The translations under genes were made by a program, and so were the position numbers. Below the pieces are notes generated by a model, which did not search any database, was not told the DNA's origin, and worked only from the letters and a program-made list of their open reading frames with translations. A DNA stretch of 64,000 nt from Podarcis gaigeae (lineage: Eukaryota), in assembly GCA_964106915.2 (NCBI GenBank), contig OZ066919.1, one strand, 5' to 3'. Shown piece by piece: positions 602 through 63,202 of this stretch (position 1 is the first letter of the stretch; every line of letters starts with the position of its first letter).

Positions 602-2043
602 TAAGGAAAGGGAGCCAGAGATCGACCACGATCTACCAAAACCTCACGGGGATCTACCAGTAGATTGTGATCAACCTGTTGGACATCCCTGCTGTAGGGC
701 AACACAGTAGAGAGGAGAGGGAGGGGAAGTCCTGTTTTGTAAGAAGAAGTCATTTCATTCATGCAATTATTTAACTGAATGTTGCCCTTAACTCTTTATC
801 TTCTACTGAGTGTGTAAAATGCACCTGAATTGGTATTTCAGGAGAAAGAGAAAGATACTCTTTTCTCCCTCTGACTTGAAGACAGGGGCTCACTATGAAA
901 TCACTTGCAAAGCTTAAGGAGGTATTCTCAACTTGATAAAAGAATGTCATTTGATTGAAATGCTCTTCAAGAAATCTGAACAGATTATCATGAGACTCTA
1001 TCAAGACTGATTTTTGCCAATGTCTCACCATTACTAATCCAATGTTCTTTTATTCTGTTATTCATTGTTACTTGTTCCACTTCACCAAAGCCAAACACGT
1101 TAATTTTCATGGATTTACAACTCAACTTAACATTAAGGACAGTCATCGCATCAAGTCCTTTGCCTTAGGATAAGTGGAGGATCAGACAACATGCACATAA
1201 AATTCAATAAGTGTCAATAACTGACCCACTGAGACTAAACTTTTGCCTCTTCCAGGAAATCAAAACACTTTACGGGGGTCGGGGTGGACGGGGGATAGAG
1301 GCCTCAGACATGGCAACAGCTTCATATGGGAACTTCAAGTAGCCATATAAACCTCACCCAGAGATAAAAAGAACTTTATAGTTTTTAATTGCATCCTAAC
1401 CTTTCATTAATTGGGCTCTGTGTAACAAAAAGCATCACAATAATAGGTCTGCAGCCCCCCCCCCCCCGTATTGAATGCAAATAGGCATCAATCAGGGGGA
1501 GAGGTACCTGCAAATCATGGGTTGGCATTCTCCACAGGAGCTAATGGGATCGTCAAATACAATGGATGGTCTCTAATTACATACAAGCCTTTTGTTTCAT
1601 TTGCTTTGGAAACAAGTGACCCAGGAAAAAGCATGTCACAGCTCTGCCAGAATCACTGATGTGTGGAGGAGCTGTACATTAAAACCTGACCAAAAAAGAG
1701 TCCCCATCAAGACCTGATCGTAGGAAGCAATAATTCAGGAATAAGGATTAGATAAATGTAAAGAAAGCATGAGATTACTTTATCTCTATGTAACAGCACC
1801 CAGATCCAAGAGTAACACCACCCAAAATGTTTTTTTTTAAAAAAATCATTGTGGGTTTCATTCCAGCACAGGATGAATTTTGTCCCAGATGTTAGATTTC
1901 TGAAAGAGAAATAATGTCAGATTTCACATTAATCACATTATTATGCTTTGTATTATAGATAGGTAGCCGTGTTGGTCTGCCATAGTCAAAACAAAAAAAA
2001 TTCCTTCCAGTAGCACCTTAAAGACCAACTAAGTTAGTTCTTG

Positions 2044-2079
2044 GTATGAGCTTTCGTGTGCACATGCACACTTCTTCAG
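2044..2079 (-). ncRNA. Minimal hammerhead ribozyme motif (left arm; 5' strand of stem I replaced by a duplicated module)
   Basis: Minus strand reads CTGAAGA-A-GTGTGCATGTGCACAC-GAAA-GCTC-ATAC. Confidence 0.6.
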
Positions 2080-2105
2080 CTTTCGTGTGCATGCACACTT
2101 CTTGT

Positions 2106-2143
2106 GTATCTGAAGAAGTGTGCATGCACATGAAAGTTCATAC
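2106..2143 (+). ncRNA. Minimal type I hammerhead ribozyme motif (right arm)
   Basis: GTAT-CTGAAGA-A-GTGTGCATGCACAT-GAAA-GTTC-ATAC: stem I GUAU/AUAC, CUGANGA box, stem II hairpin, GAAA box, NUH triplet. Confidence 0.7.
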
Positions 2144-2940
2144 CAAGAACTAACTTAGTTGGTCTTTAAGGTGCTACTGGAAGGAATTTTTTTTGCTCTG
2201 TATTATGTTACTGATATTCGACATCACCTTGGGATCTTTGGATATAAAATGAAATAATAATAATAATGGTGGTGGTGGTAATAATAATAATGCTCCTATC
2301 CAAATAATGGTATATTTCATATTTATGCTCCTTTCTTCCTTGATTTTGATGGAGTTAACTTTTGAGTAGGCATGCTTTTGATTTCCAGTTTGTGCTTAGG
2401 TACAATCTGTATGTGAAAAGTGCCTTTACTTCAAGTAACCACAGTGGTCCATTAGCAGGGTGGAACAGGTGTGAACTCCTTGTCAGGGGACTGCAGCTTT
2501 AGGCTGAGTTTCAAAAGCTGTTTGGCATGGAGGTCAGCTGTTCAAATAGCCAAACATTCCACTGGCCTAATGCGAGTCTAGGCAGACCTTTGGAGCCCAG
2601 CCACAGCCTCCAAGCAATAAATCGATAAATGATCATTTATCCTGTTAAAAGAGAAAGGGGTGACACAGTGGCCTTATTCAGGCATTTATCTTCTGGGTTA
2701 AATCAACTAATTATGAGGGAGAAAGGAGATTACTGAACTAGCTCCATTCCATTCTCTTCCAACATACAGACCTGGAAATGTTTTGAAATAAACCATGGTA
2801 TTTTGGGGAAATCTGATTTTTTTTTAAACCAATTTGTTTCACCCACTTTACTAGACTTATGACCTGGTAAGGTGCATGAGGGGACATAATCAATGCTGGT
2901 CCACTTTTAAGTATCAGAATTGCCACTTACCCCTTTTGCA

Positions 2941-3682
2941 GGTTGCAGCCCCTTTCATTTCACCACCATCCACAGCAGCCAGAGCACACAAGTTGGGATG
3001 GCCGTTTGGGAATTTCCCTAGCTGGTTTATTGCATTCTAGGTCAATTTTTAACATGTATTTTAAACATATTTTGTTTTCCAGGTTGCTGGTTTAGCCTTG
3101 CTTTATTCCCTAGATTTCCTTCCGTTTAACCATCTTTGGGTTCCTTTCATCTCCTGACCTTGCTATGGTTGTCAATGGTTGCCATCTTTAGAGCTGGGAA
3201 GGAATTTGCCCGTAGACAAGTTGGCCCATCGAAAGGTTTTGCCCTTCCCCATAGCAAAACATCACAACTTTTGGCAGTTAAGGAGGAATCCCAATCACCA
3301 AGCTTTTGGGTGAAGTGGTGCATCATCCTGCCCTGGACCAGTGGCTTACTCAGGGTACCCTATTAGAGGGGTCTCGGCGTAAGTCTCTGTCCAGAAGCCA
3401 AACATGGGGCAGGCCAGCCATAGAGCTTCCAGCAGTGGCCTTAGGCTGACCACTTTGGTAGATCAATATCTTGGGGAAGCCAGGATCCTTGGCCTTGAAA
3501 AAGTCTTTGCCTTCTGGCCAGAGGCTAGAATGGATATACACCCATTACCTGAGCCAAAATTCCATCCACACCTGCAATCTATAAATTGTTGTCATTTTAA
3601 ATTCAGATCATTGTCTACTTGAGTTTTTTTATCACACCTTACTTTAGTCCCTGCCTAGGGGAAGGTGACTGGGAGAGCAATT
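2941..3682 (+). mobile_element. Degenerate LTR-like element (copy A), related to 58469-59244 and 62311-63126
   Basis: Shares TGACCTTGCTATG, GGAAGGAATTT...TTGGC...GGTTTTGCCCTTCCC and TAGCAAAACATCACAACTTTTGGC blocks; decayed poly(A) block TATAAATTGTTGTC near 3580; ends approximate. Confidence 0.6.
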
Positions 3683-18721: not shown

Positions 18722-19130
18722 AGGAAGATAGGAAGCTACCTTATATTGATCCAGTCCATTGGTCCAGCCAGCTCAGTATTTCAACACTGACTGGCAGCAT
18801 CTCTCCAGGGTTTCAGGTAGGGGTCTCTCCTCTAGCCCTACCTGGAGATGCTCAACAGTCAACCTGGGATCTTCTACATGCTATACCACTGAGCAATGAC
18901 CCTTCCTTCCAAAGAAACAACAAAGAAACCTGCCTTATACAGAGTCAAAACATTGGTCCCTCTCACTCTGTATTGTTCAAACACTGCCTAATTCAGTAGT
19001 GTCTATACTGAGCAACAGCAGTACTCCAGCATTGTGTCTCTCCCAATCCTATATTGAGATTCCAGGGATTGAACCTGGGACATTAAGCACGGAAAGCAGA
19101 TGCTCTACCACTGAGCTATGAGCCCTGCCC
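18722..19130 (-). mobile_element. Two adjacent copies of a tRNA-derived SINE
   Basis: GGGATTGAACCTGGGAC...TGCTCTACCACTGAGCTA (reverse complement of A/B boxes) with shared 3' part CCTTATACAGAGTC...CATTGGTCC; copies ~18722-18905 and ~18930-19130. Confidence 0.7.
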
Positions 19131-21017: not shown

Positions 21018-21094
21018 TACAGTGGTACCTCAGGTTACATACACTTCAGGTTACATACGCTCCAGGTTACAGACTGCGCTAACCCAGAAATAGT
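21018..21094 (+). mobile_element. Tc1/mariner (Tigger-like) MITE, left end only
   Basis: TA-CAGTGGTACCTCAGGTTAC; same family as 49773-50024. Confidence 0.8.
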
Positions 21095-21151
21095 GAAAAC
21101 AAAAAAAAATCCTTCCAGTAGCACCTTAAAGACCAACTAAGTTAGTTCTTG

Positions 21152-21189
21152 GTATGAGCTTTCGTGTGCATGCACACTTCTTCAGATAC
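21152..21189 (-). ncRNA. Minimal type I hammerhead ribozyme in Penelope pseudo-LTR
   Basis: Minus strand GTAT-CTGAAGA-A-GTGTGCATGCACAC-GAAA-GCTC-ATAC; both catalytic boxes intact, stems I and II perfect; predicted cut between 21156 and 21155. Confidence 0.78.
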
Positions 21190-21369
21190 ACTGAAACAGA
21201 AGTTGCCAGACCCTTCTATATAGTGAGAAGGTGGGGAGGGGTATTACTCAGAAGGGTGGTGGGAATGGGTGATTGGCAGATAGCTGTGATGAGCCTGTTG
21301 ACGACTCTTAACGACTGCAATAGGTCTTACAGGAAAAAGCAAGGGGTGAGAAGGTGAAAAATGGCTTTG

Positions 21370-22654: not shown

Positions 22655-22793
22655 CATAATCATAGTTTTGGAAAAGGACCACAAGGGTAATCTAGTACAA
22701 GCCCCTGCAATGTAGGGATCTTTTTGCCCAGTGTGGGGCTCAAACCCATGATCTTGAAATTAAGAGTCTCATGCTCTATCAACTGAGCTATCC
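22655..22793 (-). mobile_element. tRNA-Lys(CTT)-derived SINE with CR1-like tail
   Basis: Minus strand TAGCTCAGTTGATAGAGCATGAGACTCTTAAT...GGGTTTGAGCCCCAC, then a CR1-type 3' end. Confidence 0.75.
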
Positions 22794-40519: not shown

Positions 40520-40646
40520 TAGTTCAGTTGGTAGAGCATGAGATTCTTAATCTCAGGGTTGTGGGTTTGATCCCCATGTTCGGCAAAAGATTCCTGCAAT
40601 GCAGGGGATGATCCTTGGGATCCCTTCCAACTCTACAATTCTATGA
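40520..40646 (+). mobile_element. tRNA-Lys(CTT)-derived SINE with CR1-like tail
   Basis: TAGTTCAGTTGGTAGAGCATGAGATTCTTAATCTCAGGGTTGTGGGTTTGATCCCC...CCCTTCCAACTCTACAATTCTATGA. Confidence 0.78.
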
Positions 40647-57911: not shown

Positions 57912-58468
57912 AAGTATGATTTGAGTTGCACATTTTGACCACTGCGCATGAAAAATATTCCATTTCCAGACTTTTCTTGCAACTAGGGTACCATGGTTCA
58001 ACTTTCTTTCTGTGATAGTTGCACTCTCAAAATCTTTTACTTGGTCTGTCAATGGGTGAGGGCCTGTGCTTTTTTTCTTTAAAAAATTGTTTAGGCGTAC
58101 TCGCATTTTGACTCAAGAAAATCACCATTTTATAGTTCAAATCGGGGGAAATAAATACAGTAAATGGACAAAAGTACAAAGATTCACAAAATGTTTAGGG
58201 GTGTGCGTAACCCTGTGCCCCCCCCCCAGGAAAAAAAGCACTGGTGAGGGTTAAGCATTTCTAAATAAAGTCAGCCTCCATTCTGCTTGCATAAGTGTGC
58301 TTCTGGCTGCCACTGCAAATGCATTCAAGTACAACTAGGAATGTCTCCTGTCTGAAATTCTGGAGAGCTGTTGCCAATCAGTGTAGATAGTACTGAGTTA
58401 GATGGACCAATGGTCTGACTCAGCTTCCCAAGTTTCTAGAAAGTGTGTTCTCACTAATAGAGAGCACG

Positions 58469-59244
58469 TGTTGCGGTGGGGTCTAACAGGCCATCCCACT
58501 CTTGCTGGGCTGATCTATTGGATGGTCACAGCCTATGATTGTGTGTGTGTGTTTCTGGGGAGATTTTGATGTTGCCAATTTGGGGGTTGGGCTAAAAGGT
58601 TTTAAATACTGGGCACATAGCTTTGAGCGTCCTCTTTTGCTGCATGCATTGGATCACCCGCCCACCCTCCCTGAAATGGGGATTTGTGCTTGACCTTGCT
58701 ATGCCTGTCATGGGGTCGTCTGCCGTTGGAGCAGGGGCCTGGTAGGAATTTTGTCCATTTGGCTGATTGGCTGGAGCCATTTGGTTTTTTGCCTACTGCG
58801 TAGCAAATCGTCACAACTTTTAAGGTTTGTGGTTAGGCACTGGTTAAAAAATTGGTTGGTGGAGGGGTAAGTGCCTACCCCTCCAAATGCTGGTGCTGCA
58901 AGGGAATTCCATTAAAGGAATCCGGGGGCTTGCCATGCTTACGTCCAAGTCCCTGGCATCACGCTTGGGCCACGCAAGGCCTCTGGGAGCATGCGGGGAG
59001 AGGTGAGGGTCTGGTGCCCAGCTTCATGTCTCCCCGATACTGTTTTCCCTGACTGGCTTTCACTGGAATCCGGAAGTCAGTTCTGTCCCTAGGTGTGGGG
59101 ACAGATAGTCGGAACCAATGCCTAAGCAACCACTCGCAGTTATGTATGTATTTAAATAAAGTTGTGGCCAAAATTATGCCAAAAACCTTAAACAAAAATT
59201 ACATGTGATGTGTGAGTTATTGGGCTGGCTTGGGGACCTCAACA
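58469..59244 (+). mobile_element. Solo LTR (copy B; Gypsy- or ERV1-type)
   Basis: Termini TGTTGCGGT / ACCTCAACA (8/9 inverted); 4-bp TSD CACG/CACA (CpG decay); AATAAA at 59155-59160. Confidence 0.85.
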
Positions 59245-60584
59245 CACAATGCTCAGAATTGGAAACCCTCCCACCCTCCCAATTCTGCAATTTAATCCAC
59301 CATCCCTTAAGCATTGAAAGGACTGCATGACAAAACATACAATGTTTAGGTATTGTTTTGCTTTACACTGTGTCAAAAAACAAACAAACCCCAAAACCTT
59401 TGAGGTCTCATACTTCTTTTACATTGAATTCATTAACAGTGCATAAGTAAGTTAAAAACATAGAAGCATGGGAGGGGAAACTTCTTAGTGAAATGATGAA
59501 AAGCTGTGCAAGCCCTGAAGGACTCATAATCTGCCTGGGAGAATTCAACAAGTTTAAAATGCAAGCAGCTAGCCCCCTGAGTAAATAGCATGGAAATGTG
59601 TGTGTGTACATTAAGCTAAAGAGCCAGGCTTTGGGTCAAGTAAATAACACAGTCAATGCATTAGCAAGAAAACGAATCCAGAATCTGCAGTGCCAAGAGA
59701 CAAGGGAGGCTCCATCAAGAGCAAAGAACAGTACTGGTATGACATTAAACCAAGGAAAATCTAATCTCAGAAAATGCTACATCATAATAATATAAAAAAT
59801 CTGGCAGACAGGGTGTAGTGCCCCTATAGAATTCTGTTCTATTCTGGTCTGTAGATTGCTTTCATCGGAATGGCTCGCAAGCATCTCCAAGAATCTATTT
59901 TTCCTACATAGCCAACCGAAAACGGTAAAATAATTTGTATAAAGATCCATTTTTCATCACTCAAGTGTGTGCGGCAAAAAAAAAAGATATTAATAAAAAC
60001 TTGTAGGTCATATTTTTTTATGTCAAACACTATTTGCTCCGTCTTCCCCACAGGAATATTATTATCTACTTCATTTCTATGGTCACTTGAGAACACTTGA
60101 GATCTTTTAAAGCAACTGAGATTGGCACTTTAATGTATCACCATGACCTCATGTATATATGTGTACTGCACACATAAAGTACACTGGGGAAAGGATTCGT
60201 CTGCAGATACCTATTGAGATTATAGTTGCTTTTGTTTGCCTCTGTAGTCCTATGAGCAAAGGCAACAGAATAATATGAAAGAGGCTTGTATCAAACCAAG
60301 AGCTAGGGAGGTATCTGAAATTTTGAATCCAGTGGGATTTCCCCCCCCCCCCCCAGAATAAGTGGTTTCAGGGATAAAACTGTTTCTCTCCTTTTCTTTA
60401 ATGGGCTTCTGACTACATGCTAGAAGTTTAAATGATTATGCCAGATTGTTTGCATCTCTAATTAAAAGCTGGAATTTCAGTAGGCTGAAGACTATTTGTT
60501 AAAGCTTAGTGTATTTTAAAATTTGAACCTTCACAGCTCAAAGTAAGCACCACTGAGTTCAGCAGAGTTTCGTCTCTGGTAACT

Positions 60585-61968: not shown

Positions 61969-62310
61969 ATATATATGGAAGCATTCCTAGCTGCATTAGT
62001 GTGCTTGTCTGCAACAACTCTGAGCATATATTGTGTGAGCATACAGCCACAGAGATACTTGCATCCATCTAGCAGTTCGTTCTCAGAAAACCTGGAACAC
62101 TTCAGCTTTGCACATAGCAAAAACAAGGTACACACTACTTTCTCCGCAGTAAACGTTATCGTCTGCAGTAGTCACAGCATGCTCATCCTAATCCGTGCAT
62201 GCATCCCGAGCTGGATAAAGAGCATATGCCTATTGTTCATTTGGTGCCAGAAAGACTGAAATGCCGTAAGAGAGAATGACCGCTCCCCACTTAAAACGGG
62301 GGGCGCCCTT

Positions 62311-63126
62311 TGCGTGGACGCGTGCAGCCCTGGATCTGGAGTGGCCCCATCAGCATAGGCTTTGCCTTCCCTCAGGTGGGATACCTGGAGGTCCCCGCCT
62401 ACCCCAGTGAGTTGTCCAATCCCACCTGGGGGAAGTGTTGCCAGGGAAACCAGGCCAGGTAGGGGGAGGGATTACCTGCCCACACAATAGAGGGTGGATC
62501 TTAATTGGTAATCCTCACTTGGCTCCAGAGCTTCTCCCACCCTACCCACCCTCAGTTAATGTCTTCTTTTGCAGGTTAACTTTTCTTCATAGGTTTTGCA
62601 GGTTAACCTGTCTCCACAGGTATGCGGGCGCTGCTACGATAAGGTCGCTGTTAAAGGGCCGGAAAGGAATTTCCCTGCATTGGCAGGTTTCGCCTTTCCC
62701 GTAGCAAAACGTCACAACTTTGGCGGTATCAGGCCTTGGGCGGAATCCTTTAGTCCATCTTCCTCTTTGCGGCGGCGATACCAGGGTTCCCCGTTAAAGG
62801 GGTTTTTGAAGGGAGGCTTTGGCCGTACGCCGAAAGGTCGTCATTGCTCTCCCCTGCGGCGGCGTAACGGGGGCGGCTATCTCTGCTTGAACATATGTTC
62901 TCCAGAGCCGGCCCATCCCCCCACACACACACACTGGATAACCCTGATGCTCCCTAGGTCCCCGGCTGGGGACTAGGGAGGGAGAACGCCCAGTGCCTGA
63001 GCCAAGGTCTACCCACATTTGAAATTTAATAAAGTTGTGGCCAATTTAATCCCATAGCACGTTGAGTCATTATTCCACATGACGGGGGGGACCACTCGGG
63101 ATCTGGGGACTCCGCCTGTCCACGCA
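62311..63126 (+). mobile_element. LTR (copy C), CpG-rich, preceded by a polypurine tract
   Basis: Perfect 9-bp inverted termini TGCGTGGAC / GTCCACGCA; AATAAA at 63028-63033; AAAACGGGGGG at 62293-62303. Confidence 0.85.
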
Positions 63127-63202
63127 AATGTATTCATGCAGCCTCAGGTCTTACGCAGATCTTGAAATCCTGGCAGACTTTGGAAGCCATCAAGTCTTCT
63201 AA

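Follow-up and report, generated by a model that had tools for sequence, protein, structure and literature searches.

A covarying, predicted ENE-like RNA structure in the terminal spacer of Ngaro retrotransposons

Three dispersed repeats in the DNA analysed here, a stretch of 64,000 nucleotides that we call the window, share a covarying cis-element that we regard as real and apparently undescribed, carried by a known class of retrotransposon and most likely working like an ENE. Judged by their sequence and layout, the repeats (copies A, B and C) are solo A-spacer-B ends of Ngaro elements, tyrosine-recombinase (YR) retrotransposons of the DIRS order. The element sits in the unique spacer between the A2 and B2 repeats, ending just before B2, and is predicted to fold into a four-way junction with a U-rich loop. 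Our favoured reading is that the motif acts as a 3'-end lock, which would capture the poly(A) tail of the full-length replicative Ngaro RNA. We hold the chances of this to be about even, and prefer it because the hallmarks of an ENE loop occur together with predicted long-range helices that would place the cleavage site at the junction's base.

Ngaro termini in the window

A repeat search delineated an ~800-bp dispersed family around each of the three copies. Their features are as follows.

58440..59249, +, solo A-spacer-B terminus of Ngaro family B (copy B); modal copy ends AA..AA, no target-site duplication, matched by elements L129 and L125
58440..58656, +, A repeat of copy B, following the extent of A1/A2 in L125; likely a promoter
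58601-58608, +, TATA-like TTTAAATA in the A repeat
58657..58671, +, C tract of four runs where A2 meets the spacer; on the minus strand, of G-quadruplex type
58696..58806, +, predicted four-way junction RNA: closing stem P1, hairpins P2a and P2b, and P3 with the U-rich internal loop
58696-58704/58798-58806, +, outer stem P1
58704-58714, +, hairpin P2a
58715-58739, +, hairpin P2b with its bulged G
58741-58746/58792-58797, +, lower stem
58741..58797, +, predicted ENE-like arm, GGUAGG / AAUUUU(GU) / CC..GG / UUUUUUG / CCUACU
58810..58820, +, spacer tail GUCACAACUUU, complement of 59158-59168, overlapping the poly(A) hexamer
58831..59249, +, B repeat; its start (58833-58845) is predicted to pair with 59113-59125
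59155 and near 59204, +, AATAAA and GU-rich downstream element of the family B repeat
62275..63128, +, solo A-spacer-B terminus of the young family C (copy C; family copies ~98% identical)
62536-62551, 62631-62706, 62711-62721, from 62721, and 63028, +, C tract, motif, tail, B repeat and AATAAA of copy C
3160..3667, +, old, decayed terminus of family A (copy A), with the motif at 3160-3257, the tail at 3261-3271 and a decayed poly(A) signal at 3580; the 5' A part is upstream of 3160

Loci fetched for families B and C have the order A1-gag/RT/RNaseH/YR/SGNH-B1-A2-spacer-B2, and the available text of PMC9210276 and PMC8547959 gives the layout A1-ORFs-B1-A2-B2 for Ngaro elements. Copy B aligns along all of its 810 bp with the A2-spacer-B2 ends of L129 (76%) and L125 (74%), both of which are YR/RT/SGNH elements, and in a full family C element (L091) there are frames for a gag-like protein, RT, RNase H, YR and SGNH. 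Phage_integrase (E 2e-6) was the sole Pfam domain in the internal region to pass its cut-off, the matches to RVT_1, RVT_3 and Lipase_GDSL_2 being below the curated cut-offs. The domain order RT, RNase H, tyrosine recombinase, SGNH was examined in 40 loci, picked for diversity from 118 YR matches, and no integrase was seen in this survey of Ngaro-like loci. The A1/A2 and B1/B2 pairs are 95-100% identical over the range as a whole, and 97-100% identical in L091, L092, L094, L106, L111, L125 and L128. The assignment to Ngaro is made on layout and the SGNH frame and, since no full-length family A element was found in the genome, on shared terminal signals only for that family.

The preliminary description of this DNA had placed the structure in LTRs, and solo units of ~800 bp with a promoter-like part and an AATAAA do resemble solo LTRs. 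The attribution does not survive for families B and C. Their units lack TG..CA ends (30 family C copies; family B modal ends AA..AA), with family C copies starting in AAT (29/30) and ending in CAA (30/30). No target-site duplication was found in the 30 family C copies, duplications beyond AA amounting to only 0-3 bp where an LTR element would have 4-6 bp, and the parent elements encode a YR and have split direct repeats. That the motif is an RNA export or stability element of an LTR or endogenous retrovirus is, in our view, scarcely credible; apart from the LTR class, a nuclear-export role for the predicted fold is possible. Family C matches also include partial tandems ordered A ... B and A-B, for which a Penelope pseudo-LTR was considered and rejected because the parents encode a YR; the fetched loci give the order A1-internal-B1-A2-spacer-B2.

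The distribution of the motif follows that of the spacer. Among the 40 loci it was present in all 14 with a duplicated B repeat and in none of the 26 without a second B, and it is kept across families whose YR proteins are ~50% identical. From its position we infer that a full element has one copy of it and that RNA stopping at B1 has none. The unique part of the spacer spans 150-190 bp and opens, at the A2 edge, with a C tract, made up of three or four variably spaced CCC runs, which was found in 21/30 unselected copies and in 11/420 flank windows.

Genome-wide, the core pattern has 3,814 matches, counted as exact-pattern rather than covariance-model matches, versus 6 for a reversed control. 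The first 30 of the 3,814 all fit the covariance model, and 29 of these 30 are taken as solos because no B1 signal lies upstream. A pattern scan of the window returned the architecture exactly three times, and the covariance model built here gave only three strong sites there, all three of them in its training set. The three copies originally reported, with their stems and loops, are thus all present on the + strand at the positions listed above; their common orientation, which had also been pointed out, is correct but uninformative, there being 1907 matches on each strand of the genome. Matches to GGAAGGAATTT at 1998, 2179 and 21106 were rejected as further copies, as they belong to another repeat and the motif is absent. 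Two inverted repeat halves form a near-perfect palindrome at window positions 1982-2195, and the same repeat occurs at 21090-21191.

Beyond this genome, eight metagenome loci with a related YR gave no covariance-model match (best E 0.3); these loci seem to end before a spacer. None of 100 viral and prokaryotic pattern matches fits the model (38/38 viral and 62/120 prokaryotic matches tested), and we take them to be chance on that account. As for the elements themselves, ~17 near-identical YR copies lie within 3 Mb of contig C32 (G000:C32:24.6-27.3 Mb), which is Ngaro-rich overall. Two full elements (L129 and L107) sit flush against termini of related families (~86% identical), which hints at a recombinase preference for existing element ends.

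The predicted junction and its covariation

Copy B has a predicted folding energy of -47.4 kcal/mol (z -2.15). The consensus over 29 copies from many families is a four-way junction of P1, P2a, P2b and P3 with the U-rich loop, in which the hairpins P2a and P2b are additional to the structure first described. The bulged G of P2b is invariant across the 29 copies, and UUCG/GNRA-type loops occur in the junction as well. In the 29-copy alignment 93.7% of the cells pair, as against 31-54% in slid controls. Both sides have changed in 10 of 25 pairs, which bears out the compensatory changes that had been claimed for the three copies, and one P2a pair is found as all four Watson-Crick types.

To allow for the relatedness of the copies, changes were also counted on a tree, which was built from the B region and holds 24 of the 29 rows, the other five having been left out for want of a recognisable poly(A) region. 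This count gave eight pair-keeping double changes, four of them on tips, versus a mean of 3.6 under a null of any co-occurring change (P=0.017). The tree-aware support for covariation is modest and comes from few lineages. In a strand test, G-U pairs outnumber A-C (83 versus 14), and the mean z is lower for the sense strand (-2.3) than for the antisense strand (-1.6), which argues for selection on the sense-strand RNA.

The U-rich loop is two-sided, with G-C pairs closing both sides, and beside the lower stem it has a conserved AA on the 5' strand and CG/UG on the 3' strand. The loop U's show no covariation, so that the sequence gives no evidence on what they do. At least four U per strand were counted in 12 of the 18 copies, out of 24, that were parsed, and 5+5 U or more in eight of the 18. 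Family C, the youngest, has 3+3 U and family A 3+3-4 U; as had been cautioned at the outset, these tracts are short for a single-domain ENE. Inspection by eye also led us to reject a pseudoknot of the apical UUGG with the junction or tail, which is inconsistent across families.

An Rfam search of the whole window at gathering scores gave no match to the motif and three tRNA-derived matches elsewhere (19055-19125, 22733-22790 and 40520-40577), which are probably SINE heads. Around copy B, at E-values up to 5, there were two matches, both far below thresholds. Neither search yielded an existing annotation of this structure.

The poly(A) signal and the possible roles of the motif

Over 9-12 bp, the spacer tail GUCACAACUU(U) is the complement of (A)AAGUUGUGGC, a segment overlapping the 3' end of the AAUAAA. 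We looked at 28 copies, four of them without a poly(A) signal, and in 22/24 the tail complement is the best duplex partner within B. In ensemble folding, the helix between tail and poly(A) signal reaches a probability of at least 0.7 in 14/24 copies, and only 0.02 and 0.12 in the types of window copies B and C, because a local hairpin competes. This helix is nearly invariant, with one double change. An inner long-range helix, between the start of B and the stretch before AAUAAA, has five double changes versus 1.0 expected (0/2000 null runs), one of the five being at a position left variable by the anchoring pattern. The most widely shared 8-mers in the ~470-nt region of 24 copies are two mutually complementary segment pairs together with AGGAATTT.

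As at functional cleavage sites, a GU-rich tract lies downstream of the poly(A) signal, and in the copy sequences AATAAA and this element come 296-365 nt after the tail. The AATAAA that had been placed ~330-360 nt downstream of the structure is found at that distance in copy B (349 nt); in copy C it is nearer (322 nt), and copy A retains only a decayed TATAAA at 3580.

In the 3'-end lock that we favour, RNA would start near the end of A1. Transcripts ending at B1 would not have the motif, which only read-through to B2 would supply. The sequence immediately ahead of AAUAAA would then pair with the first ~25 nt of B, and AAAGUUGUGGC with the spacer tail, so that the cleavage site, ~10 nt further on, would be brought to the base of the junction. 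Through the G-C-rich lower stem side the poly(A) tail would enter the U-rich loop, where U-A-U triples would block deadenylation, and the locked RNA would serve as a long-lived template for packaging and reverse transcription. In known ENEs the A-rich strands likewise enter from the lower (junction-base) side, and a KSHV-like triple run is ~5. The complementarity between the tail and AAUAAA and the covarying helix that closes B are new here, and together they would set the poly(A) site next to the loop; if formed before cleavage, the tail helix would mask half of the B2 hexamer.

As given in the available text of PMC13541005 and PMC12501189, the hallmarks of an ENE are U's on both strands, G-C flanks and a position upstream of the poly(A) site; PMC12501189, in the same limits, reports that the U loops and flanking G-C pairs of the Evade ENE are necessary. 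The motif has U's on both strands (at least four per side in 12/18 parsed copies) with G-C flanks. The conserved stem, U-rich loop and stem upstream of a poly(A) signal are compatible with the ENE comparison made in the preliminary description, the function being a prediction. The junction hairpins P2a and P2b lie outside described ENEs and are not needed by them.

These hairpins fit a different idea, which we consider possible if doubtful: a packaging or reverse-transcription signal of the kind of hepadnaviral epsilon or retroviral psi, bound by Gag or RT with no poly(A) triplex, in which the C tract and the start of B would mark the points of priming and strand transfer. A multi-hairpin junction with a bulged G and such loops resembles a protein-binding platform, A1/A2 and B1/B2 are near-identical (95-100%), and the motif is confined to RNA reading past B1, exactly between two sharp homology edges, the end of A and the start of B. 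The solo units also bear on it. Exact junction matches in family C (spacer/B 363, ORF/B 14, B/A 6) correspond to ~357 solos, 6 full ends and 8 single-B elements, an excess of A-spacer-B over A-ORF-B units of ~45-fold. As the longer, closer B repeats should not recombine 45-fold less than A, solos may arise in the course of reverse transcription; the excess may also reflect selection against long copies, and PMC8547959, in its available text, ascribes solo AB units to recombination. A packaging signal would, moreover, leave the two-sided U loop 300-360 nt before the poly(A) site unexplained. No description of an Ngaro priming mechanism was found in the literature, as far as its text was available. 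We think it unlikely that the spacer is the Ngaro replication origin, a proposal in which the tail:AAUAAA helix would dock the poly(A) tail and the loop would hold it, so that its paired 3' end could serve as the primer of reverse transcription, one fold thus both protecting and self-priming the genome RNA. The C tract would set the A boundary through a G-quadruplex stop on the cDNA, and early closure of circles would give rise to thousands of A-spacer-B solos, mobile, non-autonomous and spread by the recombinase.

A poly(A)-site switch, in which the tail pairs with the AAUAAA region of B1 on the nascent RNA so that some transcripts run to B2 and the junction merely presents the tail, seems to us quite unlikely, and it is compatible with the 3'-end lock, with which it can coexist. 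The element needs some route past B1, and the tail, made 440-540 nt after the B1 signal, is equally complementary to B1; predicted pairing is at least 0.4 in five of nine nascent-RNA snapshots but at most 0.1 in the other four, the hexamer is covered only in its last 1-3 bases, and here too the U loop is left without a role. Ribozymes are common in retroelement termini, and the motif abuts the B boundary, where self-cleavage could define an RNA end or primer. This is very improbable: there is no Rfam match at the gathering or E-value thresholds used, hammerhead core words are absent from 24/24 copies, and the conserved unpaired bases are mostly U runs.

Some further observations concern expression and the element ends. 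RNA reads of a related organism from four runs, compared with copy C, yielded 16, 97 and 66 reads and 49 contigs, mostly less than 95% alike, and no pile of read starts or ends and no splice joint was seen on copy C in these few, diverged reads. In family C (62560-62622) and family A (3030-3115), three or four splice-acceptor-like runs stand in tandem before the motif, and family C has a splice donor 34 nt past A1; these may give a short spliced RNA or a gene-trap effect. Splicing as a shared role was rejected, as a donor near the end of A1 occurs in 1/6 elements and family B has no acceptor-like runs. At one locus (L101, 8264-9076) another A, a C tract and part of a spacer come after B2, making a tandem B-A-spacer multimer that is compatible with repeated copying of a circle. 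Directly before B1, in 42/45 loci from L091 to L137, stand TTGGCGG, a hairpin (CGAG...CTCG with a variable loop) and TGGCGG. This hairpin lies ~30-50 nt after the SGNH stop, shows a compensatory change in family C, is distinct from the spacer motif and may mark the B1 boundary for strand transfer. In a distant metagenome Ngaro (33% YR identity) the SGNH frame is followed by a similar TTGGCGG-hairpin-TTGGC (L140:4930-4960).

Relation to known systems

ENE-type poly(A) capture is known mainly from viruses, MALAT1 and plant and fungal transposons, and would, if our reading is true, extend to tyrosine-recombinase retrotransposons in a vertebrate. The junction, the U loop, the helix between tail and poly(A) signal, the C tract and the pre-B1 hairpin form a set of conserved candidate cis-signals for the copying of Ngaro elements, which are little studied, and each of them can be mutated. 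At least 3,800 promoter-structure-poly(A) cassettes are present in the genome and are easily mis-annotated as solo LTRs. A survey by Tycowski in 2016 reportedly covered ~200 transposon ENEs. According to the available text of PMC7583470 its entries include slime mould and stickleback, and a DIRS-order case could already be among its supplements. No description of a structured Ngaro spacer was found in the literature text available outside that survey and the original Ngaro papers.

The closest likeness in layout is to Ngaro-like elements of the SGNH type (Xenopus DIRS-53_XT), which, in the available text of PMC9210276 and PMC8547959, share the RT/RNase H, the YR, an SGNH frame after the YR and near-identical repeats, and for which solo AB units are reported too. 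That text mentions neither a structured A2-B2 spacer nor long-range pairing with the poly(A) signal nor a C tract. SIRE, a derivative of the trypanosome element VIPER, is similarly an abundant short unit of A2, unique spacer and B2 (PMC6681497, available text), with a unique part of ~30 bp, whereas the Ngaro spacer is 150-190 bp and predicted to be structured. The same text treats the independent mobility of SIRE as an open question and Ngaro replication as a paper model.

Among ENEs, the double ENEs of plants and fungi (TWIFB1), as far as their available description goes, share with the motif a transposon-borne U-rich loop and an irregular lower part; the motif has only one U-rich loop. Compared with the single-domain ENEs of KSHV PAN and Arabidopsis Evade/Copia93, it is hosted by a YR retrotransposon and its arm stands inside a four-way junction, with an extra AA/CG in the loop, 3+3 U in one young family and a predicted long-range helix with the poly(A) signal.
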